64,000 nucleotides of DNA. It comes from Naegleria gruberi (taxonomy: Eukaryota). A program made the position numbers and the translations under genes. The notes under the pieces were generated by a model, which worked only from the letters and a program-made list of their open reading frames with translations, searched no databases and had not been told where the DNA came from. The stretch is taken from the NCBI GenBank assembly GCA_000004985.1, contig GG738863.1. The stretch is one strand, 5' to 3'. Below are positions 9,816-33,513 of the stretch, piece after piece (position 1 is the stretch's first letter; the number at the start of each line of letters is the position of its first letter).

Positions 9816-9867
9816 TTTTTTAAGGTTAAAAAGCATGGTGATTGATGTTCTCTGAGAGTTATGTGGA

Positions 9868-9878
9868 TTGGCGCCAAA
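9868..9878. promoter_or_regulatory. E2F-type palindromic element (aTTGGCGCCAAAt) 53 nt upstream of the WD40 gene ATG
   Basis: GGCGCC-core palindrome matching the E2F consensus TTTSGCGCSAAA. The same motif recurs at 30549-30560 and 33484-33495 at similar distances from an ATG. Confidence 0.5.
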
Positions 9879-10000
9879 TTTGACCTCTCAATACGAGTTC
9901 GTAAACTGTAGCAGGAGTTGAGTTGCACAACACTTGATAGAGATTAAATATCAGAGATTGCACCACCACAAATATATTGAGGCTATTTGAGGATGAAGAT

Positions 10001-10040
10001 CAGTCCTATGGATTAATGAGGAAGTTTTCACATAGGACTG
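10001..10040. repeat. Perfect 10-bp inverted repeat (CAGTCCTATG ... CATAGGACTG, 20-nt loop) in the G-patch gene 3' UTR / WD40 promoter region
   Basis: Seen directly in the sequence. It sits in an unusually GC-richer block (9840-10070) between two minus-strand genes. Confidence 0.6.
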
Positions 10041-10074
10041 GTGATGTTTCACTTTAACTGAGTTGGTGCTCATT

Positions 10075-10977
10075 CTAGAACTCTCTATACTCACAACAGT
10101 TATCGAATGAGACGACCGCAACATCATCATCTTGATTTTTGAGGAGACATGTCTCTTTTTCTCTATCTTTTGATACTAAACTGCCCACAAATCCCTTATG
10201 TTCTCCCTTCACAACCATGCATTGAAGTCCTTTTTGCTTTGGAATAATGGTTTCAAGGGAATCCTCTCCAATATGTTCCAATATTTCTCCAGTATCCATT
10301 TTGATTGTGCATTCATAACTAGTTGGAATATCCATTACAAGACCTTTTTGTAAATAATGTTTTCCATTACTGATATATCTCACATAGAGGTTTGGTAATA
10401 ACCAAGTGATGGCCTTCTTTTTCTTTGGTGCTACTGAGCTTGAAGATGCTGATTCATTAGTTTTTGGTCGTTGTTGTTCAGATTTGTTTTGAATACTTGT
10501 GGTTGCTGTCTTTTTACTGTCAGCTTGTTTTTCCTTTTCCAATTGGTCTTTCAATTTCTTATTCCTTGGATCCAATTCAATTTGATGCTGAAGACTACTT
10601 CCCAATCCAGCCAAATGAGGTCTAGGTTTTGGCTCTACAGGTTCAACGATTTGTTTCGATCTTCCAAATGGTTGACCATCCTTCCAACCCATTCCTCTCA
10701 ACATTGCAGCACCAAATCCTTCAACTGGCTTGGACGGAATAAACTCCTCATCCTTAGTATAATGATGATGATGATTTTCCAATTTTGCTTGTTTTATATT
10801 CAAATGATTTCCCTTGCACGGAATTACTTGATCAATTTTTCTCTTATTAGATTCTTCCTCTTTTCTTTCGGATTTTTCTTCTTCGGGATTTAAAAATTGA
10901 AGTGAAGATGATGCTGATTTGATATTTTTTGATTGTTTTGAAAGTTGAATTAAAAGTCTCTTGTCCTCACTCATCAT
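10075..10977 (-). CDS. G-patch and KOW-motif protein (GPKOW/MOS2/Spp2-like splicing factor), 300 aa
   Basis: G-patch signature GFGAAMLRGMGWKDGQPFG...AGLG. A KOW-like segment KGLQCMVVKGEHKGFVGSLVS lies near the C-terminus. ATG is verified. Confidence 0.65.
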   Translation of the reverse strand: MMSEDKRLLIQLSKQSKNIKSASSSLQFLNPEEEKSERKEEESNKRKIDQVIPCKGNHLNIKQAKLENHHHHYTKDEEFIPSKPVEGFGAAMLRGMGWKDGQPFGRSKQIVEPVEPKPRPHLAGLGSSLQHQIELDPRNKKLKDQLEKEKQADSKKTATTSIQNKSEQQRPKTNESASSSSVAPKKKKAITWLLPNLYVRYISNGKHYLQKGLVMDIPTSYECTIKMDTGEILEHIGEDSLETIIPKQKGLQCMVVKGEHKGFVGSLVSKDREKETCLLKNQDDDVAVVSFDNCCEYREF

Positions 10978-11128
10978 GTTTAAATATTTTTTTTATTATA
11001 TTTATTAAATATTTAATCAACTATTAAAAACCAGTTTACCAAATACTTAATAATTAAATTATTTAATTTAATATATTAACAGTAAATACTATTTAATATT
11101 TAATAAAGTCAATCAATATATCAAAAAA

Positions 11129-12094
11129 ATGTCTGCACTTGATAGACCAATCTTTATCGATGATAGAACAGAGGAAGAAAAAGTAGAATTGCAAGCTGCT
11201 CAAGCAGCCTACTTTAGATGTTTTTCATATGTGGATAATATGATGAGTAGACTATTTCCGAGTGCAAAAGTAACTGAACAACATGAAGATTATGCACAAA
11301 AGATAACATTGGCTTGTACTTTGGAGGCTTTATATGAAGATTCTCATGTGGGGTTCAAGTCAGCATGTGTGGATTCAATTAAAAGAGCAAAGGACGTAAA
11401 TGAATATGCTAATTCGGACTTGTTAATTGATAATCCAAACCAAATTACAAGAATGACTGAACAGGATTTTAAGAATGTAGGAAAATCATTAACTCAATGT
11501 ATTAGATCCAACAGAAACTTTGAAGGATTAATTCAATTTGCAACTAGAAAATATTTTTATTGGACTGAGGAAGGAAGTAGCAAGTTTTATGCTCCATATC
11601 TAGTTAAAAATTTCACAGAGGATAGGAATAGATTTAAGAGTTATGAATTTAAGGGGGATGAGGACCAAGATGGTTTGGAATATAAATTGGATTATCTGAC
11701 TGATAGATTTGCTAGACATCAAATTAAAGATTATTATGTCTGTATGACATCCAATTCTCCAGCAATGTCAGATAAATTTGATATGGCAGATATGAAATTA
11801 AACTGTCTTCCAGAAAGATTATCCTATCACCTTAATGTTCATTCAGTTTTTTGTAGAAGATTATACGAAAGATGTTTGAGAAAGAGAGATAACTATATGC
11901 TTTCCAAAAATCCAAATTATGATATGAATATTGCAATGCAAGAAAGACCATTCAATGATTTCGTTGAATGCCAACTGTATGATGCAGATATTGCCAAGGT
12001 TTGTGTCTCTGTGGTTGAGGAATATGTCAATAGGAAAGCTGTGACAGATGCTGAAGCTGCTTATAATGAAAAGCTGCAAGAAATGAGAAAATAA
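11129..12094 (+). CDS. Hypothetical protein, 321 aa
   Basis: Clean ORF with aaaaaaATG start and TAA stop. No recognised domain. Confidence 0.5.
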   Translation: MSALDRPIFIDDRTEEEKVELQAAQAAYFRCFSYVDNMMSRLFPSAKVTEQHEDYAQKITLACTLEALYEDSHVGFKSACVDSIKRAKDVNEYANSDLLIDNPNQITRMTEQDFKNVGKSLTQCIRSNRNFEGLIQFATRKYFYWTEEGSSKFYAPYLVKNFTEDRNRFKSYEFKGDEDQDGLEYKLDYLTDRFARHQIKDYYVCMTSNSPAMSDKFDMADMKLNCLPERLSYHLNVHSVFCRRLYERCLRKRDNYMLSKNPNYDMNIAMQERPFNDFVECQLYDADIAKVCVSVVEEYVNRKAVTDAEAAYNEKLQEMRK

Positions 12095-12097
12095 ACT

Positions 12098-15000
12098 CTA
12101 TTTATTTAATTCTTCCATCAAAATATTGATAGCATCATTAAATTTATCTTGAACCACAGGAGAGCACCTACGTATTTCGAAATTATCCTTAATGAGGGCA
12201 GTCATTGAGCATTGATTATAAAAAGGAAGGGAGGTAAATTGTCTAGTTCTGAATTGAAGCTGTTCCAAGAGAGGTTTACATGTTCTATCAATCAACTCCT
12301 TGTTTTTGGTTCTAACAATCTCAAGAGCTCTATTATCCAACTCAATGAGTTGATATGTTTGTGTAATTTGATCAAAACCTCTTTTACCTTGTTCAATTTC
12401 GCTCAAAATATTCAAGTGAATGGTTGCTGTCTCAAACAGAGCTCCTAATATCAAAGGTTGAACTAGATGGAAAGGACCAGAAGCTGTTGTCAATGTAAAA
12501 AGCTTTGCCTCATTTTCTATTCTCTCGTCCAATACGCCAGCTTCCTTATATAGCTGCACGTTACACCCATGATAGAATAATTGATGTAAACACTTCATAC
12601 AACTCCTAGTTGTTTCACTAATATTTCTTTCATCTTCGTGAACAGTCAAGAAGTTGGCAGAAAACTCGACCAACATGGTATACAGGTTCAAATTCTCTAA
12701 TGACACTTTCTGAGACATGATGCTCATAATAGTATTGGGAATTTTTCCAATAGCATACAAGCAACCATCGCAAATAATCTTGGAAACATATGAACCAAAA
12801 GTAAATCCAGGAAAGTTAGAACAATCATCCAAAAAGAACTCTCCAGATTTGTCTACACTGATTCCACACAATACTCTATACTTGAGTAGATGCAAATCAT
12901 CTACAGGTAATCCATTAAATATTGAATAGTTTTCTCCATTCTTGTTTTCATCTTCAATAGAATAGTTCAAGTGAGTTTTGTTTTTAAAAGTCTTATTTCT
13001 CTTTCTGAAAAATAAATCTACATAATTGAGATAAAACTTTGCCTTTCCCTTATCACCAATACCACTGCAATATCTAGCAAAATGACAGTAAGTACCAGCA
13101 ACAAAAAGGCATTGAGAATTGTCAAAACTTTCTGTGAGAAGAGTTCTTGATTTTTGGAAACTTATTTGAGCCTCATCATGAACTCCAAATGCCTGACAGG
13201 TAACAGCATGAATAGCATACAAGAGTGCCAAAACATCATTTGAATAAATTCCTCTCGTGGCCTCCTCGTTGAAAAATGCCAATTCAAGAGTAGTTTTTGA
13301 AAGAAGTGGATAACCCATTGAAATCACCTCATCATACAACTCTACAGTACGTTTCTTGTATGCATTCATATTCAGTCTTTGATTCATCTCTGCATCTTTA
13401 ATTAAATCATGAGCTATCGCATTATTATTAATATCCAATTTGATATTGAGATTTTGAGGGAAATTAGTTTGGTTAACACCCAACGATCCGAGTAAATCAC
13501 TAATAGAATCCTTTGATAAATTCAATAAAAATTCTCTATCAATCTTCGGTGATTGAGATCTTTGATTATTTTGAAAATTATCAATTAATGCAAGTGCTTT
13601 TTCCTCTTCCTCATTCTCTTTAGAACTACTGCTATCTGAATTCGAGAGTGATGTAAATAGTGTCGAAAAGGTATCATTATTAAAATTGGATGTATTTTGT
13701 GCTATTACTAATTGTAACTGATTTTGCAATTGATTGGAAACAGTCATTGGACTGAAATTAATATTTGGTTCTTCAATTGGTTGAGGAGGTTGAGACTGTT
13801 GTGGAGGTTGTTGATTCCATTGTGCTGTAAAATGATTATCAACAATGTGATTAATTACATTTTGTTCCTTCTTTTGTTTCTTTGGTTTAGGTTGAGTTGA
13901 AGATGAAACAAGTGGAACAGTATTAGTTGGAGGAATGTAGAGTAAACTTGAGTAAGGATGAAACTTTTGATCCTTTCTTCCTTTCATCTTTGGAGATCGA
14001 TAAGTACATTCCACACCTCTCTTAGTACAATTCAAACATGCAGGCAATGTACGATCACACTTCTCTGGGTTAGATTAAATTATTCGAAACTACACATACC
14101 TTTTTGTGTCTCGACCTACATTGCACACATGCAATAGGATGTCCATGTTCAGGTAATATAGATTCCTGAGAAAATCCATTTACATCCACATTTTCACTAC
14201 CTAAAGATTTTTTCCTTTTTTGTTTCTTTGCTGGGGAATCTGTCGCCACCATGTTGTTGGACGAAACAAGAGAAGGATTAAATGTAGTGCTAGTACTATT
14301 ATTTGGCTGTTGTTGAGGTGATGATGCAAAACTAGTAGCAATTTCATAATTACTATAATTTTGTTGCTGCTGACTCACGTCGTATTGATTCGTTGACATG
14401 TTACTACTGCTCAAAGGAACATTCGTAGAATAGTTAGCATTCGAATAAGTTGTGGTAGGATATGTCTGTTGTGGTGGAATGTGATGATGTTGCTGCGGAT
14501 ACAAATTATTATTGTTATTAGGCATCAAATAATTAAAATGTTGCTGCTGATGTGGGTTAACCATAGGAGGTGTTTGTTTAAAAGATGTTGTTGGTTGTTG
14601 TTGCGTATTATACTGAAATGATGATGATGGAGGATTGGATGTATATTGATTATTATTAATCACCACTTTTTGCATGGAAGGATAGCTATTATTATTGAGC
14701 ATGTTATTGTTAATAACATTCGGGGAAGAAGTGAACACATGTGATGCTTGTTCGGCACCACCAACATGCTGCTGAGGTTGTGATAAATTTGGTTGAGATT
14801 CTCCATTGCCAGTAAAATTCTGTTGGGCGGAGGAGGGATGTTGTTGTTGTGATCTTTGGTTGTAGTATTGAATATGATCATAGTCCATGTGACGATTCAT
14901 CATTGGAATGTTATTATTTGATTGTTGTTGTTGTTGGTGAAGCATATGATGATGTGAATTATTTAGCATGTTATTGGTAGTAGTCATCATGTAGGATGAT

Positions 15001-15128
15001 GAAGAAGAATTTGGAAGAGCATTCTGCACCATGTAATTGTTGTTATTGCCTGAATGTTGTGATGAAGATGAACCTATTGTTGATGCTGAGGGTGGAAGCT
15101 GCTGTTGATGAGGTGGGTTATTGTTCAT
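12098..15128 (-). CDS. Fungal-type Zn(II)2Cys6 binuclear-cluster transcription factor with a long Q/N/S-rich N-terminus. 2 exons (14100-15128, 12098-14062) and a 37-nt intron at 14063-14099.
   Basis: Exon 1 ends ...ACVQCRSRHKK|GTATGT. The intron ends ...cccagag|. Exon 2 continues KCDRTLPACLNCTKRGVECTY, giving the cluster C-x2-C-x7-C-x6-C-x2-C-x6-C. The downstream part contains a fungal-specific-TF-like middle homology region. The exact splice choice may change the x7 spacing to x6. Confidence 0.65.
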
Positions 15129-15940
15129 GATAGTTCTTTTATGAGGAGTAAGTATGGGGTGCTGTTCTGATTTTTGGATGTGATTGGTGATGGAAGAGGA
15201 GAGGCAGGGGAACAGTGTGGTTTAATTTTCTTCTGATCAGAAAAGTGCTTGGTCAATCCGGAATAAAAAACGATATCTCAAATTGATAATGTTTCAATCT
15301 AGAAAGCAACTCTAGATTTCAAGAATTTGAATCGACTCTTTAAATTGGTCTACTATCCTAGAATGAGTTGAAATTTGAGAGAAATGCAAGTTTTTGGCTG
15401 CAGTTGGAAGATAGAACCAAAATAAATACGCGACAACACAAAAAATGAAAGCAAAGAAAATGCGATTTGGATGTTTTGGCAATTTTTTAAAACTTGAAAT
15501 AATAAAAATATGAAATATTGTGTCAAACCAAACAACATCTATGTGGTTCACGGGGGCAGAAAAGTTTAGCCCACCAATTTGTCAGTTTGTTCAGTTGATG
15601 TGGGTTGATTTGTTTAATTGTGAAAGTGGAGGATTTATTGCACCTGGTTTTAGTTGTGAAAGAGCATGATGAATGATCAACAACTTCTATTGCCTTTTGT
15701 TTTGAGCTCGTGGATTTTTGGAGTTATTTAGGAAGGGGATCTTTCCATATTTTCATTATCGTAGAACTCGATATTCAGTTTATTGAGGCCAATCTAGTCC
15801 GGTATATCGCTCTCAATTACAGATTTTTTTACACTAAGGCGAAAGAGGAATGCATGCTCATTCCTATCCCATGGGCTGTTATGGATGCATCCAGAAAGAA
15901 AAGAGCATTCTACTCATTATTTCTTCTATTTATATTTTTA

Positions 15941-17062
15941 TTACTGGTAATTAATTAACATACCCAACAAACAATTTAGGATGACCACAAAGGACAGGTT
16001 CATGCTGTAAAAGCCTGATTCAAGAACAATTTGAGAACCACCAATATGCACAGAGCTTGAGTTTGAAGTCACAACGATATTTTCATATTCAAATTCGCTC
16101 ACTCCCACACTCACATTCGAGATTGCTTTGATCCACTCTTTGTGGAATGGAATAGTTGTGTAAACACCTCGATTAGAACTGGCGGCTGGTGTACCACATT
16201 GACTAGGACCATAGCTTACAATACCAATCTCAATGAAATCAGTTGAATTCACAGTATGAAAAAGTCCACTTCCGGAATCTCCAGCACAAGCATCTTTGCC
16301 ATCTCCAGCCCCAGCACATAATTTACCGACAGTGGTACTCATGTCTAATTCCAGATCATTACAATACTTGTCTTCAACATAGGGAACCGTGGCCTTCATC
16401 ATGTGGTCAACAGCTTGATTGACATAACTTGAAGTGATTCCCCAACCAGCAACAATTTGCATGGCATTAAAAGCAGGAAGCGATGATGCAAGTGTAACAG
16501 GTTTAATAGTCGACGAATAAGGAATATCATCGTACAGTTCCACTATTGCTATATCATTATTGAGCGAGTAATCATCATAGCTTGGATGTAGATGAAGAGC
16601 CTTAACTCTGGCCACAACACAACTCGATGATGATTGTATAGTGTAACCTGATGAAAATAGACTCTTCGTTATGGTACACTCTGATAAGGTTGTAACTCCC
16701 ATTACAGCTGCATAATTTGTTGCCGAGGCTTCATAGGCACAGTGTCCAGCTGTTAGAATGAACCTTTTAGAAATAATAGAGCCACAACACTTATGAAAAA
16801 CATTGCCACTCACTGATCGTTGCTGAAGAGAAACAAGGAAGGGAAATTCATGATTGCTGGTTTGTATCCCTCCCTGGATTTTCGTATCTTGTGGAGAGTG
16901 AATATTCAAACTTGCTCTCTTATTTCCTTCTATTGGGCATAAAACATTGAATAGAGTAATTAAAAATAATATCTGTAATAATATTGCACAATAGGTTGTT
17001 GTACAATTCCGTATTATTTTTCGTGTGGATGATAATGGCCAAGATAATTGATATCTCCTCAT
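15941..17062 (-). CDS. Secreted trypsin-like (S1 family) serine protease, 373 aa
   Basis: N-terminal hydrophobic signal. Catalytic-triad contexts are TAGHC (His), DIAIVEL (Asp) and GDSGSGL (Ser). A disulfide-pattern Cys are present. ATG is verified. Confidence 0.7.
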   Translation of the reverse strand: MRRYQLSWPLSSTRKIIRNCTTTYCAILLQILFLITLFNVLCPIEGNKRASLNIHSPQDTKIQGGIQTSNHEFPFLVSLQQRSVSGNVFHKCCGSIISKRFILTAGHCAYEASATNYAAVMGVTTLSECTITKSLFSSGYTIQSSSSCVVARVKALHLHPSYDDYSLNNDIAIVELYDDIPYSSTIKPVTLASSLPAFNAMQIVAGWGITSSYVNQAVDHMMKATVPYVEDKYCNDLELDMSTTVGKLCAGAGDGKDACAGDSGSGLFHTVNSTDFIEIGIVSYGPSQCGTPAASSNRGVYTTIPFHKEWIKAISNVSVGVSEFEYENIVVTSNSSSVHIGGSQIVLESGFYSMNLSFVVILNCLLGMLINYQ

Positions 17063-17383
17063 TATTCCTTAATATTGATTGTTTGGTTTTTTTTTCAATT
17101 TAAGGAGAACACACCGATCAATTTAATGTGTTGCTTTCCATCCTACAGGTTCTAAAATTCAAAAAGAAGAACTCTCAACTGAAAATTTCTCGTTACTAGT
17201 ACAATTTTTAATTTCCAATCACTTTATCCTTATCAGGCAGTAAATGTGGTTTGAATACTTTTTCTTCTGATATACTCTTGAACGGGCTTTCATCGTTAAA
17301 ACATTGTTTAAACACATCATCCACATCCTATAAAGCGTGTGAATTAGATCAACATATATGGATTAGTATTTTGAAAAATTCAC

Positions 17384-17827
17384 TTAATTAGTACATACAG
17401 ATAACGCCGATTGTTTGCATGCACTCACAGTACTTGCAAATGCGTGTCTTTTCAGACATTCTTCCTTGTTTGAGTAATTCTTTAAATCTTCTGCACTTGC
17501 ACATGATCCACCAAGATAATATGCTCTTACTTCAGAGCATGCTCTCACTTTACAATAAAACAATTGTCTAAATCTACAAAAATCATATGCATGAACCAAT
17601 TCATGTACTACAGTATTTTCTAAATCACTTTTTCCTATCATTCTATTACAACAAATCACAATTTGATTTTTAGATGATGAATAATATCCGCTCACACCAT
17701 CCTCTTCTGGTGATTCACATTTCTTCAAATCCAATCCTCTTTTCAGCATGCCACATCCTTTAGTATTTTGCTCCTTTATCTCTTGAAGTAATTTATTGAC
17801 TCTCTTTTCCGTCAACACTGATACCAT
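17384..17827 (-). CDS. ATP23: ATP23-like mitochondrial inner-membrane metallopeptidase (peptidase M76 / XRCC6BP1 family). An upstream exon is possible.
   Basis: HEXXH motif VHELVHAYD. It is flanked by the family's conserved Cys pattern (GCGMLKRG...IVICCN...ACSEVRAYYLGGSC), which aligns with human and yeast ATP23. The ATG is at 17825-17827. The N-terminus is shorter than in homologues, so a small 5' exon may be missed. Confidence 0.6.
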   Translation of the reverse strand: MVSVLTEKRVNKLLQEIKEQNTKGCGMLKRGLDLKKCESPEEDGVSGYYSSSKNQIVICCNRMIGKSDLENTVVHELVHAYDFCRFRQLFYCKVRACSEVRAYYLGGSCASAEDLKNYSNKEECLKRHAFASTVSACKQSALSVCTN

Positions 17828-18241
17828 GTCTATCAATTCCGAAGATGTGAGAAATTAATCATTTAAAAATTACCCTATAATTATTAAATAAAAACACATG
17901 TGTAATAGAATGTTAAAGAAGAATCGGCATAAACCAATCAAAGATGAAACTCTTACTTTTTGACACGCCTTCAACTCTTCGTATGGTGGCATTTTTTATC
18001 TTGTTGATATGATGAATTTATTTTGATTATTATCTTGTTGCTCTATTTAATAAAGAGTTCTGATAAAAATAGTGAGGAAAGAATCCTCAAATCAATTTCT
18101 GTATCGTTCTACTGTGATGAATTGATGAATTTGAAACTCTGTTTAGAGAGTTTGGTTCGTAAAATTGATTGAATGCCTTTCTTTTGGCATCGAGATGGTT
18201 TTGGTCAATCAATTAATTGGTCTCGTATGAATCAAAATTGT

Positions 18242-23441: not shown

Positions 23442-24389
23442 TTACTTATTCCAAATTACTGATGTGATACTTCCAAGAGAAACTGAGAGAGCAACCTCAC
23501 TTCTGTATACAATTTTACGAGCCAGAGAAAGAGATTCAAATCCCAATTCTGCTAACTGAGCTCGTTCTTGATCAAATAAATCTCTTTCTGGTCCAACAAG
23601 CAAATTGATATTCATCTTGTTCATCTTTTGTTTGTTTTCTTCAATTTCATTCAAGAGGGAAAGCCAAGGCTTTTCTCCATCAACATCCAAGAAAACTCTT
23701 CTTTCATTCAATTGCTCTTTCATTTGCTTGCAATAATCTTGAATTGAAAGAGGTGAAGCAATTTCTGGCATTCCATAAAATTGTTTGGATTGCTCCACTG
23801 CTGAAATCATAATCTTTTCAAGTCTATCCTTCTTATTTTCAAAATATTCAGCATGTTGTTTCTTTTCAGTCATGATTGGAATAATCTTGTTCACTCCCAT
23901 AGAGGAACATGTATACATCATCTCTTCAAAAGTATCTCTTGATTTTGTCATACATATTGATGCAGTGACTGAGAATAATTTTCTCTGATTTAATAATTGA
24001 CTGGTTGTTTCATCTTGTTCGAGAGTTAGTACTTTGGCTTGAATCATTCGATTTTCCATTTTAATTACTTCAAATAATTGATGATTTGATTGAGTGTCGA
24101 ATAAAACAAATTGATCACCAGTTTTAAATCTGAGAATATTATTCATTCTCCTCACCAAATTTCCATCATCAATTCCAATAATTTCATTCGGCTCCACATC
24201 AACCATCATTTCCGATAATTCATTATAATTCAATGCAAAAACATGTCTATTATGATTATGAATATTTCTTGTACAATTTTCCAAAATCCTTCCACCACAC
24301 CTCCTCTTACTTCCCAAAGCTCCTATTGCAAATTTTAAATTGTGCACAGAATAAGCTAGTGAGTTTGCTGCTGTTATTGATTTGAACAT
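23442..24389 (-). CDS. RsmE-like RNA methyltransferase (DUF558 / 16S rRNA m3U methyltransferase family), probably organellar
   Basis: The C-terminal SPOUT-type motifs LLVGPERDLFDQERAQLAELGFESLSLARKIVYRSEVALSVSLG resemble the RsmE family signature. ATG is verified. Confidence 0.55.
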   Translation of the reverse strand: MFKSITAANSLAYSVHNLKFAIGALGSKRRCGGRILENCTRNIHNHNRHVFALNYNELSEMMVDVEPNEIIGIDDGNLVRRMNNILRFKTGDQFVLFDTQSNHQLFEVIKMENRMIQAKVLTLEQDETTSQLLNQRKLFSVTASICMTKSRDTFEEMMYTCSSMGVNKIIPIMTEKKQHAEYFENKKDRLEKIMISAVEQSKQFYGMPEIASPLSIQDYCKQMKEQLNERRVFLDVDGEKPWLSLLNEIEENKQKMNKMNINLLVGPERDLFDQERAQLAELGFESLSLARKIVYRSEVALSVSLGSITSVIWNK

Positions 24390-24509
24390 TTTTTATTGTG
24401 TGTTCATTACAAATGGATGCACCACTCATGAAGACAACTTGATGTAAAGTACTTTAACATTTACATTGTGTCTTGCAGATGAATGGATTCATCCCTAATA
24501 ATTTAAATT

Positions 24510-25415
24510 TTACCAAAAAACGCTAGTAATCTTACTAATAAAACCAGTGACACCACTTCCATTCTCTTCCTTTGGTTGTTGTTGTTGCTTCTTTTTCCTT
24601 CTGGCTTGCAAACTGTTATCTTCACAGGCAACTAAACTTTGCATGTAACTGGAGGCTTTGGTTGGTTGTTTTTGGGCGGCTTGAGTCTTTTCAGGTGAAA
24701 GATATTGTGGTTGATAGTTTTCCTTATCATAGTTAATATTGTTATACTCGGTTTCACAAACACTATCAGAAATAACAGAGATGGTGTAAGAGTTCTTAGC
24801 TAATTCTTCCAGAATCTTATCTGTTGAGGTTCTAGTGTATACAGTGACTTGTTTCTTAGGTACATTGAATGTGTAGGAGATGGTTCCTTTGAGTTGCAAG
24901 ATTAATTCTTCTAATCTTTGTCTTTGTTTTTCATTTGTCAATTGTTCAATTTGAAGAACAACATTTCTCTTCTTTCTTCTCTTCTTCTTCTTAGCATCGA
25001 TATTAGAAGCATTGATTTGTTCATTCATTGGTGCTTGAACAGAAATGAGATCATTTGGAAGAAGTTCCAATTGTTCACGGCCTAGATTCATATACAAATT
25101 ATTGATAATTTCATGGATGAGTGTACACAATGTATTTGTCTTATCAACTTCAGACTTGTACAAAGCAACAAGTGATTCTATAATATTAGGTTCCTTGGAC
25201 ATTAAATCGGTATTGTCTGGATGAGAGGAGAGCATCTTGATTGTTTCGCAAGCAATAATCTTTACATTGGTAGAGTAATGTGGTTGAGAGAGGAAGGAAA
25301 CAAGAGATGTAGTAACACCTCTACGAACAATGACTGGCTGATTGTCTCTGTCGAGGGCCAATGTTCGAAGCTTGGTAACTACTCTGTGGACATCGACGGC
25401 AACTGTTTCCTTCAT
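24510..25415 (-). CDS. Armadillo/HEAT-like helical protein with a C-terminal HMA-like beta-alpha segment (ARMC1-like architecture), 301 aa
   Basis: The N-terminal region is ARM-like. A KKQVTVYTRTSTDKILEELAKNSYTISVISD segment has a ferredoxin-like HMA flavour. The call is by architecture only. Confidence 0.35.
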   Translation of the reverse strand: MKETVAVDVHRVVTKLRTLALDRDNQPVIVRRGVTTSLVSFLSQPHYSTNVKIIACETIKMLSSHPDNTDLMSKEPNIIESLVALYKSEVDKTNTLCTLIHEIINNLYMNLGREQLELLPNDLISVQAPMNEQINASNIDAKKKKRRKKRNVVLQIEQLTNEKQRQRLEELILQLKGTISYTFNVPKKQVTVYTRTSTDKILEELAKNSYTISVISDSVCETEYNNINYDKENYQPQYLSPEKTQAAQKQPTKASSYMQSLVACEDNSLQARRKKKQQQQPKEENGSGVTGFISKITSVFW

Positions 25416-25778
25416 TTTGTGATGATGTGATGGAAGGCTGAGGGTAAAAATGCTTGTTTTTTTTTATTGAGAAAAATGAATAGATTTTTAAATTATGTGT
25501 AACGGATAGAGTTTTAGAAAATGTAACGGAAAGAGCGCCAAAACAATTACAACGGTAATTATTTAATATTATTTAAATTAGAATTTATTGAAGATTTAAT
25601 AGATTAAACTGAATATCAATGACAGATAACTACCATTAAAAGCTACACAACCAATAATAATGGTTTAACAACCTCCCGCCATTTCTTGCCATTACAAATT
25701 CCAAAAGCAAAAAAAGAATTAAATAATGAACACTAACGGATTTGCTTTTGGAAGCAGTCATCACCAACAAAGGCAATC

Positions 25779-26175
25779 TTGTTGCCTTCTCAATCTGACA
25801 ATCATCACACAATATTCCAACATCCATCAGAACATCAGCAACACATTCAATCCTTTCCGAGAGTGAGAAGGAGTAATCCCTATCTTTTCAATCATCATTA
25901 TTCTTCATCACAGGATGAAATTACTTGCTTCTCGAATAATCATCATCAAATAGATAAAAGAGAGGTATCCTATTATCGTAAGTAGTATTCATATGATCAG
26001 TAGTAGAATAGAACCATATAATTATCACTAGAACAAACACTAAACATGATGAAACAAGCCCAAAAAGATATTGTTGCCAATAATTCTACCAATCCAATGA
26101 TGATTGATTCGGAACAGACAACAACAGAGCAAAAAGCACCAAAAAGCAAGGATATCAGAGACTATTTTTCTAGAA
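25779..26175 (+). CDS. Fragments of an uncharacterised multi-exon plus-strand gene (exon-like ORFs ending at GTAAGT/GTATTA donors)
   Basis: The ORF 25779-25985 ends immediately before gtaagtag. The ORF 26041-26175 ends before gtatta. Both are Q/H-rich. The gene structure is not resolved. Confidence 0.2.
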
Positions 26176-26277
26176 GGTATTAATTTAATCTTCAGACCTG
26201 TACAATAATAGAATACAATTTATGTAGTTTAATAATTTAAATTTTGAACTAATTAGTGATTAGGTTCGTTGGTTGGT

Positions 26278-26808
26278 TTACTTCTTGTTAAGATTTTCCA
26301 AAAGCCATTCCTCAGTTAAATCCTCATAATCACGAATTTCGTAACTTCTTGGTACGTCCAATTTTCTTGCCAATGTTAAAAAAAGTCAGCTGCCAAATAA
26401 AACTTACCTAATCAATGGCAATTTCAATCTAGAGTACATCACTGTTTGTGAAAAATGTCACTATGATAAATAATCAACACAATAAAACATACTTTGGTCA
26501 TATGGATTAGCATTCTTTGGAGTGTAGAAAATAGACATGAGTGGATATTGAACTCTATCACTTCTTTGCCAAGCATAGGACAAGATAATAAATCTTGGTT
26601 GGAGGTTACAATCATCAAGGAAAGTTTGCAAATCATCAAAATTGGTTTCTTCTAATTTATCATCAATAATAATAGATCCATCATCCTTTTTAATCTTGAG
26701 AATGAGAGCAACCATTGATTTGCTGCTACTCAAACGAACCTTCTTATATTCCTTCAAAACTTCTTCTCCGAGGATAATATCAGATTGTGCTTCTGTTGTA
26801 GTGGCCAT
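26278..26808 (-). CDS. GMF: Glia maturation factor (ADF-H domain) homologue. 3 exons (26493-26808, 26408-26441, 26278-26365) with introns of 51 and 42 nt.
   Basis: ...PRFIILSYAWQRSDRVQYPLMSIFYTPKNANPYDQ|MMYSRLKLPLI|RKLDVPRSYEIRDYEDLTEEWLLENLNKK aligns closely with human GMFB ([28 protein letters not shown]...EQQMMYAGSKNKL...VFEIRNTEDLTEEWLREKL). The middle exon is only 34 nt. Confidence 0.7.
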
Positions 26809-27263
26809 ATTTTTTATGAATAATGAAACTTTTCAACACAAACCAATCACCGACAATGAGAGGAGAATGTTTGATGGATTTTGAGTTATCGATGTCGATT
26901 CCAAATTGCGAGAAGCTCCTCTTGTATTGAAAACTCCTTTCCATATTTATGATTATGGAGTAAGGAAGAATCTGCATCAATGCAAGTGCTTTGTAAAAAA
27001 GCCTTATTGTTTGAACACTAAAGAAAAAGAATGAATTGTGTTGTTTGAATTCGTAAATAAACCAATTATTCATCATCCAATATCCTCTTCTTATCCTACC
27101 TCTATAAAAAATATTGTAAAGTTAATAGTATTTAAATATTTAAATATTAGTAAATAGTAACACACAATAAAATTAATATGAATATTAATTTCAATCAAGA
27201 TTGATTTAAATACGCCGAATAAATATTTTCATCATTTCGGGACCTGAAACAATTTAGAAAAAA

Positions 27264-28499
27264 ATGATGAGAAATATGAAGACGCTCTTGAAGCCATCAT
27301 CGTCATTGGCTTGCATCACTAGACAACCACAACAATTCGCCACCAAACTTTTCAATAACAGTAGTAATATTCGTAATTTTTCATTATCGAGAATTAGTAA
27401 ACAACAACAACAATCCGAACAAAATAGTGGTGGATCATCGGAATCGTCAGGAAAAAGACAAAGTCCATTCAGAAGGCTTTTAAAGACTTCCTTGTTGTTG
27501 TCATTGGGTATTTCAACTGTGGCCATTGTTTGGTCAGTAAGACAATATAATCAAGAACCAAATGACTCAGTTTTGGATAAGGTTTTCAAGAACTTGTATG
27601 GTCCATATAGAAATTATGTTCAATTGACCACTCCTCAACCAAATATTGAGGAAACTTTAGTTTATAATAATGATATGCTTTCCTTTGATGCCTCTAATAG
27701 TGCTGATCCAACTGATCCACTTTCTAATTTATTTGTCAAGCCAGGTCTTTTGATTAAAGAGGAAATTCACAATGTTGGAGGTACCTTTGAAGTTTTTGAT
27801 GATTATGGACATACTCTTGATTTAATTTGGATGCTTATGAGTAGAGATGAATTCAACAAGGCATCCAATAGTGTTGATTCAGGATCTAGAGAAGAATTAT
27901 TGAACGGAGAAGATTTTGAATTACTCGAATTTAGTATTAACAGAGGATTAAACCCAGAGGAAGAAATTGTTTATATGGAAAGAATTAATCCAAAGGTAAG
28001 CTCTTTATTTCTATAATAGTAGGTATTAATTATTGAGTAGAATATGGTTTCTTCAAAAGAATATGCAAGCTTACCAGAAAGTATCAAGAACAAACCAAAT
28101 TGTGTAGTTGCTGTTATCAAAACACCAAATGCCTATGCTCATAAGAAGGATTATTTCGAAACAAGATATGGTGTTGATTCTGCTAAAAAAATCACTTCAC
28201 CTCCAAATCGTGACTTGTACAGAGCTATGGTCTTGACAACATACTTTAACTATTACATTGCTATTGGTAGAGCTTATCCAAATCAAATGATTAATTTCGA
28301 TTTGGCTAAAAAGGATTTAAGCAGAGAAGAAATGCAAAAGGTTTTGAGTTTTATTCCAGAATCTCAACAAGCTACCTTCCAAGCTATTGCTCGCCAAAGT
28401 ACCTCCAAATCATATGAAGTGATAAGAGATCTCAGAAATACTGCTTTGAAATTGTATGCTGATAGATTGACATTTAAAGTTCCTCCAGAGGACAATTAA
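27264..28499 (+). CDS. Hypothetical protein with a presequence-like N-terminus. 2 exons: 27264-27996 and 28041-28499.
   Basis: The exon 1 donor is AAG|GTAAGC. A 44-nt intron ends ...gagtag|. Exon 2 is in phase (...RINPK|NMVSSKEY...). The N-terminus MMRNMKTLLKPSSSLACITRQ is R/S-rich, suggesting mitochondrial targeting. Confidence 0.45.
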
Positions 28500-28518
28500 A
28501 TCAATCTTAATGTACATG

Positions 28519-30507
28519 TTAAATCTTTAATGTGCTCAGTTTAGTGCAAACAACATCTTTGAAGTTAGATTGTTTTTGAATAAGGTGGAATGCTCGGACA
28601 AACTCATATCTAATGGCATCTAATCCAGTAATAGAAACATTTCTGGCTGTGTTAAACTCTGTTTCGAATGGATCTTCTACAGCAAACAATGCTTTCCAAG
28701 ATTTATCTTCTTTCGAGAAGATTCTATTTCCTGAGTTTCTAATGCTAATGGCGTTATTTTCATAATCAAACTCAAAGGCATAGTACTTGAAGAATTTTAA
28801 CAATAGAGATCCAAGAGAGTCATCTTTCTTGGTTATCTTTTTGTTAATTTCATCAAGAGATTCTTCAAAGGAGCAATCATAATTGTTACCATCAAGTCCA
28901 TCCACTATTTTTGTTTTCATGTTTGTAAACACAGTTTTGTCTTGTAAGAATGGCAATACATCACATTGTTGGAGTAGGTGAATAACCATTATTACCAAAC
29001 AATAGGAGCTGAGTGTGCCTCCAAATGGGTCATTGATACATCTTTGCTTAGACCAGTATTTGATTAAAAATATTAATTGCTTGCATCTAATATCAATATT
29101 GCAATAGAGTCCAATTAATCTCGTATTGTAAACTGCCAAAATATTATTTACACCAATGTCACAGTTAATTTTGAGATTTTGTTCGGTAAATGTTACAATA
29201 GGAATTCTTGCAGTAAATATTCCCTTCACGTCTGTATAGTTTAGTTTTGATTCTAAAAATTGTTTGAGTTGTGAAACATAATTTTTCTTGTGATATTGTT
29301 CTTGGGATAGCTTCTTCTTAGGCTTGGACTTCTTTTTAACTTCAGTCTTTTGAGATTCTTCTCCCTCCTCATCTTGCTCCTCTACAACTTCTTCTTCAGC
29401 TGTTTCTGTATTTTCATTGGGTTTTTCTTCCTCTACTTCTTTAGAGACTGGTATTTTCTTCATTCTATCTGGTGTTAATTCCACAACAAGACAAAAATCA
29501 ACGTCACAATATTCATTCTTTCCTTGTAATTGTCTTAAGCATAGTCCATTAGCACTTGATCCAAACATGTAAAGTTTAGCATCACTCCACTTGTTAATTA
29601 TTAACTTTTCAAAATTTTTGAAGAATTCATTTCTCTTTTCAATCTCCTTTTGTGTAGGAATGAGTTCATTATAAAGTTTCAATATGGATGGTGTTACACT
29701 ACTTGTCAAAAATGAATCTATTGGTTTGAGCTTTTCTGGTATGGTTAACATTCTCTCATCGAGCTCAACTCTATAGGCTCCAAATTTAAAATTAATAGGT
29801 TGATCCTTTTTCTTATTTTTTGTAGGCTTTTTTTGTGTTTTTTCTGGAGAGGTATCAGATTGTTCAGTAGTTGAATTAGTAATTGAATTTTGAACAGTTT
29901 CAGTAAGTTGTTCTTTTGGAGGGTTGACAAATTCTTTTTGTGAAGGAGTCTCGACAGCCTTATTTTGAACTGGTTTGGGTTGTTCTCCTCCCAGCAAAAG
30001 TGATTTTAATTCATTTTCAATTTGTTTTGCATTAGTTTGATTTTCTTGGGGATGTTGATTAGGATAGTAGTAAGGATACATTGGATTGTACATCATAGTT
30101 GGCTGACCTGTTTGATAATAACTATTCAGAGCATCCATGTTAGGAGGATATCCAAACATTTGATGGACTTGTTGAATGGTGTTGTAATCATAAAAATTAT
30201 AAGGTGGTCGATTAAATATTTCACTGTTCATCATCTGATTTTGATAGTAATTTTGTTGCATAAAACTCGTATCGTAATAAACAGGCTGTTGACTGAAATG
30301 TGGTTGTCCATTATTTTCCATTCCGTTCGGAGGCTGATGATAATGTTGTGATGGCACATTCCAATTATTTAAATTATTATTTGTACTATTACCGTTCACA
30401 TGAGAAGATGTCGTGGATGGAAATTGATTTCGAAGGCTAGAATTCATCGTTTGATGATGATGTTGTGGTGGATTTGAATGCTGCTGTTGCGTTTGTCGTT
30501 GTTGCAT
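28519..30507 (-). CDS. Cid1/GLD2-type non-canonical poly(A) polymerase or terminal uridylyltransferase. Nucleotidyltransferase domain plus PAP-associated domain, with Q/N/Y-rich N-terminus.
   Basis: The NTase motif is MFGSSANGLCLRQLQGKNEYCDVDFCLVV (GS...DxD). The PAP/OAS1-associated region is LLLKFFKYYAFEFDYENNAISIRN. A long prion-like N-terminus is present. ATG is verified. Confidence 0.65.
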   Translation of the reverse strand: MQQRQTQQQHSNPPQHHHQTMNSSLRNQFPSTTSSHVNGNSTNNNLNNWNVPSQHYHQPPNGMENNGQPHFSQQPVYYDTSFMQQNYYQNQMMNSEIFNRPPYNFYDYNTIQQVHQMFGYPPNMDALNSYYQTGQPTMMYNPMYPYYYPNQHPQENQTNAKQIENELKSLLLGGEQPKPVQNKAVETPSQKEFVNPPKEQLTETVQNSITNSTTEQSDTSPEKTQKKPTKNKKKDQPINFKFGAYRVELDERMLTIPEKLKPIDSFLTSSVTPSILKLYNELIPTQKEIEKRNEFFKNFEKLIINKWSDAKLYMFGSSANGLCLRQLQGKNEYCDVDFCLVVELTPDRMKKIPVSKEVEEEKPNENTETAEEEVVEEQDEEGEESQKTEVKKKSKPKKKLSQEQYHKKNYVSQLKQFLESKLNYTDVKGIFTARIPIVTFTEQNLKINCDIGVNNILAVYNTRLIGLYCNIDIRCKQLIFLIKYWSKQRCINDPFGGTLSSYCLVIMVIHLLQQCDVLPFLQDKTVFTNMKTKIVDGLDGNNYDCSFEESLDEINKKITKKDDSLGSLLLKFFKYYAFEFDYENNAISIRNSGNRIFSKEDKSWKALFAVEDPFETEFNTARNVSITGLDAIRYEFVRAFHLIQKQSNFKDVVCTKLSTLKI

Positions 30508-30548
30508 TTTTTCTCAAACTCTTCAAATCCAGCCTGGAGGTGCATTAA

Positions 30549-30560
30549 TTTGGCGCCAAT
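30549..30560. promoter_or_regulatory. E2F-type element TTTGGCGCCAAT, 42 nt upstream of the Cid1-like gene ATG, in a divergent promoter shared with the GGTase-I beta gene
   Basis: The GGCGCC core is flanked by TTT/AAT. It lies between the divergent genes at 30507 (minus) and 30745 (plus). Confidence 0.5.
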
Positions 30561-30744
30561 CAATTCTTCCACCAAATTGAACCTTTAACATCATTCGCTA
30601 CTGTAGCAATCAATTAATTCTATTCATCATCAAATTCTTTTATTCAAAACTTATTTAATATATGAAAAGAAGTGAACAGGGAAATTGTAACAAAATCATC
30701 AATCTATCCATCATCAGCAATTTATATAATAAAATTATTAAAAA

Positions 30745-31827
30745 ATGTCTTCATCATCAGCATCAACCAATTATCCACCTCTCGAAGTTGATAAACATGT
30801 AAAATACTTTATGGGACATTGTAGTGTACTTCCACACTTTTATGGTTCTCAAGATACCAACAGAATGACAATATTGTATTTTATAATTTCCGGCTTGGAT
30901 GTTCTCGGAAAAGTTGATCTGGCTTTGAATGATGAGAGAAAAAAGGAAATTATTGAATGGGTTTATTCTAATCAAATTGGACCAGATCAAAATGAAAGTA
31001 ATTTGGAGAAGTGTGGATTTAGAGGAGGTAATTTTATTGGTTTACCAATTGGCTGTTATGAATGTTGTCATGAACATCCACTCTCTGAAAATCAGATCAG
31101 ATATGATGTTGGACATATTGCTATGACTTATACTGCTCTTGCAATTTTAAGAATTCTTGGAGATGATTTCTCTAGAGTTAATAAGAAAAGTATTATTGGA
31201 GCTTTGAAATACTTACAAGATAAGAATGGTTGTTTTAAAGCAACTTGTTTTGGAAGTGAGACTGATATTAGATTTACATTTTGTGCTTGTGCTATTTCAG
31301 CATTTTTGAATGATTGGAGTGGTGTAAATAAGGAATTAGCTTTTGAATATATTAAAAGCAGTCGTGGATATGATTATTGCTTCTCTCATGGTCCAGGATT
31401 GGAATCTCATGGAGGAAGTACTTATTGTGCAATTGCTGCGCTGGATTTGATGGGATATCTTGATAAATTGGATCATCAAGAAGAAATGAAGGAATGGTTA
31501 TTGAAAAGACAACTTTCTGGATTCCAAGGAAGACCACAAAAGGATGCTGATACTTGTTATTCATTCTGGGTTGGTGGTACTTTACAAACACTTGATTGCT
31601 TACAATATGTGGATGAAGTACAAACAAAATTGTTCACATTATCTTGTCAAACTGAATATGGCGGTATAAGTAAGGTCAAAGATACCTATCCAGATGTATT
31701 GCACACTTACATGTCATTAGCAGGTTTGAGCATGCTAGGATTTGAGGGTTTGAACAAGGTTTTCCCATCTTTAAATATTACTGAAAGAGCTGCTAAAGGA
31801 CTTGAATGCTTTGATTCAAGACAATAA
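30745..31827 (+). CDS. PGGT1B: Protein geranylgeranyltransferase type-I beta subunit (prenyltransferase alpha-alpha toroid repeats), 360 aa
   Basis: Collinear similarity to human PGGT1B. For example, [16 protein letters not shown]...[29 protein letters not shown] corresponds to NLNRCGFRGSSYLGIP...[29 protein letters not shown]. Also [16 protein letters not shown] and [12 protein letters not shown] match. Confidence 0.75.
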   Translation: [360 protein letters not shown]

Positions 31828-31986
31828 ACACTTAATTTATTTAGATCCTTATTGGAGACTATCCTAAATAATAAAGAAATGGAAGAAACAATAATTGATG
31901 ACGAAGGGGAAGAGGAAGAACTAACACCAACAACGATTTTAAGGTTAACAACATTGGGGTGCTGATAACTGGCAAATACAGATAGT

Positions 31987-33444
31987 TTATTGAAAATCTG
32001 AGGAGAGATGCAATATTTTGGGTAGTTTGACTTTAAGTATTTCTAAATTTTCTGATAATTCAGCCTTTTCATTTCTTAGCTGATTGAGAGCTTGTTCCAA
32101 ACTATTTACTATTTGACTATTTTTCAAAAAGTTAGATTCTAGATTAGTATTTGCTTCCTTAAGAATTCTAATCATTTCCACTGATTTCTGTAATTCTTTC
32201 TTGTATCTATTTGACTTTTCAATGAGAGTTTGTTTTTCTTGCTCATTCGCATTATCCTTGTGAGATAGAGTATTTTCGTATTTATCTTGTTGCTCCCTTA
32301 GTTGACTATTCAGAGAATTCAAAAGCTCTTGGCTATTCAAATGTTGAGATTGGTAATAATTCTCCTTCTCACGAAATTCGCTTTCAAGCCTATCCACAAT
32401 CGAGGTCAGATTGGAAATCTCCTTTTTGAATGACTTCTCTTGTTCCTCTGTTTTTAAAGCAAATTGTTGACTTTGATTTAGCATTTCCTCTTGAAACTTC
32501 TTATTCTCTGACCTTAATTGATCAACCAACAGTTCCAATTTTTCATTCTCCTTCTTTAGTTTTTCCTTTCCCAGATTTTCATTAAATTGCAGCTTTTGAA
32601 ATTCAAAAATTGTTTTCTTCTCTTCTGCAATTGCTCTCAAAAGTTCATCTTGCATGATGGTCAACTCTTCACATTCTGCTCTTTTATGTTCAAAATTAAT
32701 TTTAAGGGTGTTTAATTCTGATTTTAATCTGTCATTCTCATTATGATTTTTTGTCAACTCATGTTTGACATGTTGTAATTCTTCTCTCATCTCACTAGAT
32801 TTAATTTCAAGATTCATCAATTGATTATTCCTCCTATCCAACTCTCCTTGAACAACTCCTTGTTTGTACATATTCAATTGATCCTGAATTCCATTCTTCT
32901 GTAGACGAAGTTGTTCAGCATATTCCTGAATTGAACTTTTTTCATGAATCAATTGAGAAACTCTCACTGAATCACCACTCATTAATTGATTAAGATTGTT
33001 CAATTTTTTAATTTCCTCCTTTAGGTGAATCACTTGTTTCGAAAAATCCTCAATCCTCATCAAATTCAAATTTCGTTCATTTTCTAATAATCTAATCTTT
33101 TCATCTCTCCAAATAATCTCATAATTACCAATATCATTGGCAGTCATATTCATCAATCCAGATTTCCTCTTCCCCTCACTTACCAAATTATTAATTGCAC
33201 TCAAATCAGAGCATGATGATTTAGCAGATGATGTAGTTTCGGATAAATAATGAGGGGAAGCAATTAAATCCTCATCAAACGAAAGTGGACCACTAGGAGA
33301 GCCCGAAGATTGAATATCAAACAATGATTGATTATAACAACCTCCTCCTCTACCACGAACAGCCCCATCATTTCCATTAGTATCATTATTCATTGTTATA
33401 TTTCCATCATCAGATGAAGATGATGAAGGCGATGAAAAATTCAT
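31987..33444 (-). CDS. Coiled-coil protein (485 aa) with an S/N/G-rich N-terminus
   Basis: There are long heptad-type K/E/L/Q-rich segments and no globular domain. ATG is verified. An E2F palindrome lies 40 nt upstream. Confidence 0.5.
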   Translation of the reverse strand: MNFSSPSSSSSDDGNITMNNDTNGNDGAVRGRGGGCYNQSLFDIQSSGSPSGPLSFDEDLIASPHYLSETTSSAKSSCSDLSAINNLVSEGKRKSGLMNMTANDIGNYEIIWRDEKIRLLENERNLNLMRIEDFSKQVIHLKEEIKKLNNLNQLMSGDSVRVSQLIHEKSSIQEYAEQLRLQKNGIQDQLNMYKQGVVQGELDRRNNQLMNLEIKSSEMREELQHVKHELTKNHNENDRLKSELNTLKINFEHKRAECEELTIMQDELLRAIAEEKKTIFEFQKLQFNENLGKEKLKKENEKLELLVDQLRSENKKFQEEMLNQSQQFALKTEEQEKSFKKEISNLTSIVDRLESEFREKENYYQSQHLNSQELLNSLNSQLREQQDKYENTLSHKDNANEQEKQTLIEKSNRYKKELQKSVEMIRILKEANTNLESNFLKNSQIVNSLEQALNQLRNEKAELSENLEILKVKLPKILHLSSDFQ

Positions 33445-33483
33445 TTTTTTTATTGTAAAGATTTTTGAAAATTGTAATTAAAT

Positions 33484-33495
33484 TTGGCGCCAAAT
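33484..33495. promoter_or_regulatory. Perfect palindromic E2F site TTTGGCGCCAAA, 40 nt upstream of the coiled-coil gene ATG
   Basis: It matches the canonical E2F consensus TTTSGCGCSAAA exactly and is an unusual GC-only hexamer in AT-rich intergenic DNA. Confidence 0.55.
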
Positions 33496-33513
33496 ATTGA
33501 TGGTAAAAGATCT

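Follow-up and report, generated by a model that had tools for sequence, protein, structure and literature searches.

The 64-kb stretch of Naegleria gruberi NEG-M DNA analysed here (scaffold_19:352001-416000; hereafter the window) raises the question of why one GC-only palindrome recurs just upstream of the start codons of three genes. A first-pass annotation regarded it as an E2F site and suggested that the three genes may be co-regulated at G1/S. We consider it likely that the three palindromes are binding sites of the N. gruberi E2F family, a prediction that draws on the observed sequence identity, factor presence, positional enrichment, and partial conservation described below.

Three palindromes close to start codons

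Exact copies of TTGGCGCCAA were found at three positions in the window (9868-9877, 30550-30559, and 33484-33493), confirming the number first reported; the earlier coordinates were off by one for the third palindrome and for a partial fourth site. Only 0.02 copies are expected per window and at least three copies appeared in 0 of 100 dinucleotide shuffles, in agreement with the previous statement that chance occurrence is very unlikely. GGCGCC is present four times in the window (in the three palindromes and at 40677-40682), GGCGC six times, always in the context TTGGCGC, and SSCGS clusters only 22 times. Compared with the 12-mer ATTGGCGCCAAA, one of the full-length sites is exact and two carry one mismatch. 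The ATG of a minus-strand gene lies 39-53 nt downstream of each copy (52, 42, and 39 nt, respectively, measured from the proximal edge of the 12-mer to the A of the ATG), much as had been claimed (40-55 nt), and the intergenic DNA around all three copies is short.

The first palindrome, ATTGGCGCCAAA (9867-9878; like the others, listed without strand), is located 52 nt upstream of the ATG (9815) of a WDR17-like gene (6056-9815, minus strand), which encodes a 1222-aa protein with two beta-propellers and an alpha-solenoid. The 12-nt first exon proposed for this WD40 gene (9804-9815, followed by an intron at 9713-9803) is borne out by the orthologues of N. lovaniensis and Willaertia, both of which begin with MKQIGLIPSGAQ. 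The second palindrome, TTTGGCGCCAAT (30549-30560), lies 42 nt upstream of the ATG (30507) of a gene for a Cid1-like terminal nucleotidyl/uridylyl transferase (28519-30507, minus strand; XP_002678238.1, D2VCW7) and ~185 nt from the ATG (30745) of its divergent neighbour, the gene for the GGTase-I beta subunit (jgi_32923; 30745-31827, plus strand). The third, TTTGGCGCCAAA (33483-33494), is contained in the perfect 14-bp palindrome ATTTGGCGCCAAAT (33482-33495) and sits in a 69-nt spacer, ~20 nt past the stop codon of an upstream synapsin-like gene and 39 nt upstream of the ATG (33444) of a gene for a 485-aa coiled-coil protein (31987-33444, minus strand). This protein matched no Pfam family above the cut-off (BLOC1_2 was sub-threshold) and had no PDB relative, and no orthologue of its gene was detected in the syntenic loci.

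When the surroundings of the three sites were aligned, the common parts were the motif and an A-run preceding each ATG, and nothing else. Because the flanks share only this A-run, the palindromes are not a repeat, and a dispersed repeat or mobile-element remnant was ruled out. The small sample, a single 64-kb window, is all that speaks for chance or for the relic of a repeat or mobile element; this explanation is effectively refuted by the shuffles, the dissimilar flanks, the location of all three copies 39-53 nt from a start codon, and the conservation of a GGCG core in the WDR17-like promoter of N. lovaniensis and Willaertia. An RNA hairpin was also ruled out, since a 12-nt perfect palindrome has no room for a loop.

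The partial fourth site, GGCGCCAA (aaaGGCGCCAAc; 40677-40684, listed without strand), lies ~200 nt upstream of the ATG (40880) of the IQ-motif gene, its assignment to this gene being uncertain, and ~346 nt from the ATG of the ORF at 39933-40331. The distance to the IQ-motif gene is as first described, but it is unlike that of the other three sites and the copy is not promoter-proximal in the same way. A minus-strand ATG at 40655, 24 nt downstream of the site, begins an ORF of just 33 codons and is not preceded by the usual A-run; with no rescuing splice, it was rejected as a start codon served by this site.

Identity of the motif and the E2F factors of N. gruberi

The palindromes match the E2F consensus TTTSGCGCSAAA or the SELEX optimum. 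The HT-SELEX consensus of human E2F1 is ATTGGCGCCAAA, identical to positions 9867-9878 of the window, and the consensus predicted for the E2F family is TTTGGCGCCAAA (PMC5449588), so that the motif is indeed a textbook E2F-type sequence. N. gruberi possesses one E2F, one DP, one E2F7/8-like DEL, and one Rb (NgruE2F, NgruDP, NgruDEL, and NgruRB in the source data of Medina 2016). Its E2F (P0135) contains the Pfam E2F domains PF02319 and PF16421, and a 24-residue stretch at the recognition helix is identical to that of human E2F4 in PDB 1CF7, the RRIYD recognition helix being common to N. gruberi and animal E2F. This protein also shares 55-60% identity with plant E2FA/B over the conserved region and is related to the E2F8 DNA-binding domain in PDB 4YO2. 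The DEL protein contains two DNA-binding domains.

The factor bound may be either an E2F-DP heterodimer under Rb control or a two-domain protein of the DEL/E2F7-8 type. The RRxYD motifs of two winged-helix domains would read the central CGCG/GGCG core, and the T/A tracts on either side would allow the site to work in both orientations. Site occupancy would then couple the genes to the proliferation state, with repression when Rb or DEL is bound and activity when E2F-DP is free. We infer binding at the sites, and likewise the direction and timing of the regulation.

The same sequence, ATTGGCGCCAAA/TTTGGCGCCAAA, is found in animal E2F promoter sites (among others, those of E2F1, DHFR, and CDC6) and as the HT-SELEX optimum of human E2F1-4. 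In animals, E2F sites occur near the transcription start of TATA-poor promoters, and those of plants have been validated by EMSA, ChIP, and reporters, whereas the sites in Naegleria are predicted from sequence and, in contrast to those of animals, are linked to genes that are not classical replication genes, with CSE1 as a possible exception. With respect to atypical E2Fs (E2F7/8 and plant DEL), a palindrome with T/A tracts suits a two-domain monomer such as the DEL of Naegleria; use of the sites by DEL, which would mean pure repression, and use by E2F-DP are not distinguishable from the motif itself. Naegleria is not covered by Cao et al. 2010.

Position and conservation of E2F-like sites

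Two further genes in the window carry GGCGGGAA-type E2F-like sites 49-64 nt upstream of their start codons. One site, ATGGCGGGAGG, with the E2F-like core GGCGGGA (25672-25682, minus strand), precedes by ~49 nt the ATG (25726) of a small gene on the plus strand (25726-26183; exact exon model uncertain), the product of which has no Pfam match but a conserved C-terminus, K[ST]KDIR[SD]YF, that resembles a PCNA-interaction box. The other, TTGGCGGGAA (TTCCCGCCAA on the plus strand; 63558-63567, minus strand), lies 64 nt upstream of the ATG (63626) of a CSE1/CAS (exportin-2) orthologue, the 5' end of which occupies 63626-64000 (plus strand), the gene continuing past the window end. In addition, a TTTTGGCGC half-site (25535-25543, minus strand), 120 nt upstream of the ATG (25415) of an ARMC1-like gene, adjoins two CCGTTAC Myb-type sites; it is not kept in N. 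lovaniensis or N. fowleri. The sites located 39-64 nt upstream of start codons may belong to the proximal promoter or to the 5'UTR. If the promoters are very compact, such short distances from the ATG would place the sites at the transcription start or immediately before it.

Of 26 TTSSCGS sites in 219 kb of DNA from Naegleria and Willaertia, 12 were found ≤130 nt upstream of start codons, a zone that accounts for 6.3% of the sequence (binomial P 1.6e-8), although the pooled sample includes orthologous promoters, which are not independent, and the 12 sites include the fourth site (40677) by way of the doubtful ATG at 40655, without which 11 remain. In this sample, E2F-like words are strongly concentrated close to start codons. 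The distance, which had been described as fixed, proved to be loose, the 12 pooled proximal sites lying 24-120 nt from the start, most of them ≤90 nt.

A GGCG core is conserved in the orthologous promoters of three genes. For the WDR17-like gene, N. lovaniensis has it at -25 and Willaertia at -28; for CSE1, Willaertia carries AATGGCGGGAAA at -89; and for the small PIP-like gene, N. lovaniensis carries GGCGGGAA at -57 and N. fowleri GGCGGGAG at about -45. Willaertia also has TTTAAGGCGCCAAAT 37 nt upstream of a different coiled-coil gene. The plant E2F elements TTTCCCGCC/TTTGGCGG (PCNA, RNR, MCM3, and CDC6 promoters) are of the same form as the GGCGGGAA/TTTCCCGCC variants at CSE1 and the small gene in Naegleria/Willaertia, which lie within ~100 nt of the start. 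The conserved proximal E2F architecture proposed earlier therefore holds in part: E2F-like words are concentrated upstream of starts and the WDR17-like core is kept, but the distance is loose and the site of the Cid1-like promoter has no counterpart in N. lovaniensis, N. fowleri, or Willaertia. This absence from three related species counts against the E2F explanation, as does the E2F gene itself, the one canonical target covered: its promoter has no clear site in N. lovaniensis, and in Willaertia the sole TTTGGCGC falls within the called coding sequence, 45 nt from its beginning.

Part of the positional signal may be unrelated to E2F, because GC-rich CG words are enriched near starts generally: 23 of the 94 SSCGS words of all kinds in the 219 kb are near starts. 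This enrichment, the turnover of the Cid1 site between species, and the location of two sites in very short spacers of tandem genes, directly past the upstream stop codon, would suit another, lineage-specific factor or, in compact tandem genes, a GC-rich core-promoter or boundary element of a general kind, the match to E2F being coincidental. We regard this as unlikely, since a 12/12 match to the SELEX optimum together with an unchanged recognition helix is hard to ascribe to chance and the conserved variants (TTGGCGC, GGCGGGAA, and TTTCCCGCC) are exactly the known degenerate E2F forms. Among other factors, NFI, the site of which is TTGGC-N5-GCCAA, was ruled out because the half-sites abut here (TTGGC, then GCCAA) without the required 5-nt spacer.

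Candidate targets and biological meaning

The WDR17-like, Cid1-like, and orphan coiled-coil genes are not members of the classical S-phase gene set, which is a further point against the E2F explanation, as is the behaviour of the GGTase-I beta gene, located 185 nt away from the Cid1 site: of the five genes found in the accessible part of Data S2 (preprint by Kennard et al.), it is the only one beside a site, and it is flat in RNA-seq of both differentiation and mitotic synchrony. Among the other genes with sites, CSE1 may be closer to the classical set, its human orthologue belonging to the MSigDB Hallmark E2F target set.

It is also conceivable, albeit improbable, that the palindromes are real E2F-family sites that serve amoeba-to-flagellate differentiation, with its de novo centriole and flagellum assembly, instead of G1/S, which would be a parallel to E2F4/5-Multicilin in animal multiciliated cells. 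Proteins of the WDR17 type are coatomer/IFT-like, and the literature connects them with a ciliary ARL13B subdomain; most full-length homologues of the WDR17-like protein belong to flagellated lineages (Andalucia, Plasmodiophora, oomycetes, volvocine algae, and crustaceans), but a ciliary role of WDR17 is weakly documented. Coiled-coil proteins are among the products of the other site-bearing genes, and the partial fourth site is near the IQ-motif gene, to which it is assigned with uncertainty; CSE1, the Cid1-like gene, and the small PIP-like gene are non-ciliary. Furthermore, RFX, FOXJ1, and XAP5 are absent from Naegleria, the cilia-gene transcription factors of which are unknown according to the literature, and mcm4, APC6, and GCP3 are transiently up-regulated 20-60 min into differentiation in published RNA-seq data. 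In its specific form, in which the single E2F-DP (or DEL) runs a regulon including cilia/centriole-linked genes (WDR17-like, coiled-coil, and possibly IQ-motif) that is switched on in the transcription burst of de novo basal-body and flagellum assembly, we consider the idea slightly less probable still.

The likeness to vertebrate E2F4/5-DP1-Multicilin in centriole amplification would consist of an E2F-family site upstream of possibly cilia/centriole-related genes in a cell with de novo centriole assembly; to our knowledge, the co-factors Multicilin and GEMC1 are animal inventions. Should differentiation genes belong to the regulon, this would inform the question of cilia-gene control in the lineage. 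Were a cilia/centriole regulon true, the E2F-driven centriole programme of animal multiciliated cells would reuse an ancestral eukaryotic link, and the missing cilia-gene transcription factor would be supplied for organisms without RFX, FOXJ1, and XAP5.

As predicted E2F-family sites, the palindromes probably extend a known system, as expected, to a remote branch of the eukaryotes. The E2F-DP-Rb proteins date to the last eukaryotic common ancestor, and E2F cis-elements have been documented chiefly in animals, plants, and a few algae and amoebozoans. Because an unchanged optimal site is found next to start codons and is partly conserved across Heterolobosea (Discoba), our results suggest that both the DNA specificity of E2F and its proximal promoter placement may be ancestral. 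No promoter grammar of the pathogen N. fowleri was found in the literature searched, and a rare 10-12-mer in an AT-rich genome would provide a simple handle for predicting the E2F regulon of Naegleria, including that of this species.

Palindromes and their putative target genes

The palindrome TTGGCGCCAA occurs exactly three times in the window (9868-9877, 30550-30559 and 33484-33493), against 0.02 expected copies, and three copies were reached in none of the dinucleotide shuffles. The 12-mers at these sites are, in order, ATTGGCGCCAAA, TTTGGCGCCAAT and TTTGGCGCCAAA. On the gene strand they lie 52 nt upstream of ATG 9815 of a WDR17-like (WD40) gene (scaffold_19:358056-361815), 42 nt upstream of ATG 30507 of a Cid1-like gene (scaffold_19:380519-382507) and 39 nt upstream of ATG 33444 of a coiled-coil gene (scaffold_19:383987-385444), respectively, which bears out both the three copies and the short distance to three minus-strand start codons proposed in the first-pass annotation. 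The occurrence and placement of the three palindromes are a solid observation. An A-run before each ATG is the sole common feature in the alignment of the flanks. GGCGCC is found four times in total; the fourth copy (40677-40682) belongs to a partial palindrome that does lie ~200 nt from the ATG of an IQ-motif gene, as had been claimed, but its position is not comparable to that of the other three.

The G+C content of the window is ~32% throughout, and CG-containing GC-rich words are very rare (the whole 64 kb has just 22 SSCGS clusters); all six GGCGC occurrences reside within TTGGCGC. The tally of intergenic E2F-like words in the window comprises the three palindromes, the partial fourth site and three further words: TTTTGGCGC (25535-25543), ATGGCGGGAGG (25672-25682) and TTGGCGGGAA (63558-63567). 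These are separated by 120 nt, ~49 nt and 64 nt from the start codons of an ARMC1-like gene, a small plus-strand gene and the CSE1/CAS orthologue (scaffold_19:415626 onward), respectively.

The WDR17-like gene starts with exon 1, ATGAAACAAATT (9815-9804), followed by a 91-nt GT..AG intron (9803-9713) and exon 2. The first-pass annotation had recognized this 12-nt first exon, and the spliced N-terminus, MKQIGLIPSGAQLWYKR, agrees with those of the Naegleria lovaniensis and Willaertia orthologues. The product is of the WDR17 type and combines two propellers with an alpha-solenoid; its full-length homologues are found chiefly in flagellated lineages. An in-frame ATG without an A-run is present at 9834-9836, 21 nt 5' of the conserved start; it either extends the N-terminus or precedes the transcription start. 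The spliced product has no exact entry in the protein collection, the nearest being an ENA metagenome model starting at an internal codon, and a correct model of this gene seems to be missing from the N. gruberi protein set. Exact NCBI protein matches were obtained for the Cid1-like product (a Cid1-family nucleotidyltransferase), GGTase-I beta, the ARMC1-like protein, a Myb protein and a protoglobin. By the published coordinates of jgi_32923 (GGTase-I beta), the window, from strain NEG-M, spans scaffold_19:352001-416000. For the coiled-coil protein (485 aa), no Pfam family scored above its cut-off, and neither a relative in the PDB nor an orthologue in the syntenic loci was detected. Synteny ends beside the GGTase-I beta gene (window 31987-34800 compared with 3956-8506 of the N. 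lovaniensis locus L004 and 3022-7559 of the N. fowleri locus L005). Beyond this break, N. lovaniensis and N. fowleri have an FWWh-domain gene, in place of which N. gruberi has the coiled-coil gene together with a gene for a synapsin-like ATP-grasp protein.

Probable E2F identity and orthologous promoters

The human E2F1 HT-SELEX consensus is ATTGGCGCCAAA and the family-predicted consensus is TTTGGCGCCAAA (PMC5449588), and the sequences at the WDR17-like and coiled-coil sites are equal to these, in line with the E2F consensus identity first suggested. The N. gruberi complement consists of one E2F, one DP, one DEL (an E2F7/8-like two-domain factor) and one Rb (source data, Medina et al. 2016). 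In the E2F (P0135), Pfam identifies an E2F_TDP and a CC-MB domain, and a 24-residue stretch is identical to E2F4 in the DNA complex 1CF7; orthologues of this protein are present in N. lovaniensis, N. fowleri, Willaertia and Acrasis. Because E2F and DP are encoded and this stretch is identical, a cognate factor is present and, judging from its sequence, its DNA specificity would be expected to be unchanged. The palindromes are probable E2F sites.

For N. lovaniensis and Willaertia magna, the comparison covered both the syntenic regions and the E2F loci; for N. fowleri, it covered the syntenic regions. The WDR17-like promoter contains aaATTGGCGCaatt at -25 in N. lovaniensis and ttATGGCGGtaaa at -28, within a 32-nt spacer, in Willaertia, and the CSE1 promoter of Willaertia contains AATGGCGGGAAA at -89. 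The small-gene promoter carries GGCGGGAA at -57 in N. lovaniensis and GGCGGGAG at ~-45 in N. fowleri. In Willaertia, a large coiled-coil gene is preceded by TTTAAGGCGCCAAAT at a distance of 37 nt. No E2F-like site was found in the Cid1-like promoters of N. lovaniensis, N. fowleri and Willaertia (all three species), nor any clear site in the E2F gene's own promoters in N. lovaniensis and Willaertia. In the pooled 219 kb, 12 of the 26 TTSSCGS words lie ≤130 nt upstream of start codons, a zone that makes up 6.3% of the sequence (binomial P 1.6e-8), where the orthologous promoters in the sample are not independent and the 12 take in the doubtful fourth site, counted via the rejected ATG 40655 (a 33-codon ORF) as a gene start. 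A further caveat is that SSCGS words generally are also enriched near starts (23/94).

An MGMT-type DNA_binding_1 domain is encoded by a Willaertia gene (locus L008) that has TTTGCCGC 41 nt upstream (15210-15217); this word may be a further E2F-like site beside a DNA-repair gene. An 8-kb ENA metagenome contig (ERZ929261) encodes proteins 97-100% identical to those of the N. gruberi region and includes the E2F-like site; this identity indicates a very close N. gruberi strain in that sample.

Small gene and other promoter words

The small gene (window 25726-26183, plus strand; scaffold_19:377726-378183) has counterparts on the minus strand in N. lovaniensis (L004 14335-15064), N. fowleri (L005 13697-14421) and Willaertia (L002 14589-14995). 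Its upstream GGCGGGA E2F-like site is kept in the three Naegleria species and absent in Willaertia. The protein is fast-evolving. Its C-terminus, K[ST]KDIR[SD]YF with basic residues after it, is strictly conserved and similar to a PCNA-interaction (PIP) box. In N. gruberi, the reading frame shifts after codon 45, which leaves the exon model uncertain.

Upstream of the ARMC1-like gene, whose product shows 73-80% identity among species, a conserved pair of CCGTTAC copies (Myb/MSA-type AACGG core) is spaced 24-27 nt apart in N. gruberi (25499-25505 and 25523-25529), N. lovaniensis (L004 15264-15270 and 15291-15297) and N. fowleri (L005 14635-14641 and 14662-14668). This pair could be a G2/M-type Myb element. 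The word tgcatGCGCGC (NRF1-like, GCATGCGC) is found at 2489-2500, ~120 nt upstream of the N. gruberi protoglobin gene, and at 17608-17620 of N. lovaniensis locus L007, 99 nt upstream of an unrelated 1233-aa gene, and may be a second GC-rich promoter word.

Proposed regulation

The palindromes are most likely E2F-family sites in very compact promoters, coinciding with the transcription start or immediately preceding it, and the binder would be E2F-DP under Rb control or DEL. With T/A tracts on either side, the palindromic core could be recognized in both orientations or by an atypical, two-domain E2F. Binding, sign of regulation and timing at the three sites are putative, and so is the G1/S co-regulation suggested in the first-pass annotation. 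The three target genes are not classical S-phase genes. Their cilium-like or coiled-coil character, together with the fact that Naegleria cilia-gene transcription factors are not known in the literature and that some cell-cycle genes rise transiently in differentiation, would be compatible with E2F acting in the flagellate differentiation programme, a reading that we regard as improbable. Among the genes adjacent to a site, the expression comparison covered the GGTase-I beta gene (jgi_32923), which lies across the Cid1 promoter from the Cid1-like gene; its profile is flat during differentiation as well as in mitotic synchrony (RNA-seq from Kennard et al., bioRxiv 10.1101/2024.01.08.573270, Curr Biol 2025).

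No description of E2F sites in Naegleria was found in the literature searched; the E2F system itself is textbook knowledge, and it is already established that E2F-DP-Rb was present ancestrally. Binding by an E2F-family factor would couple these genes to the proliferation state.
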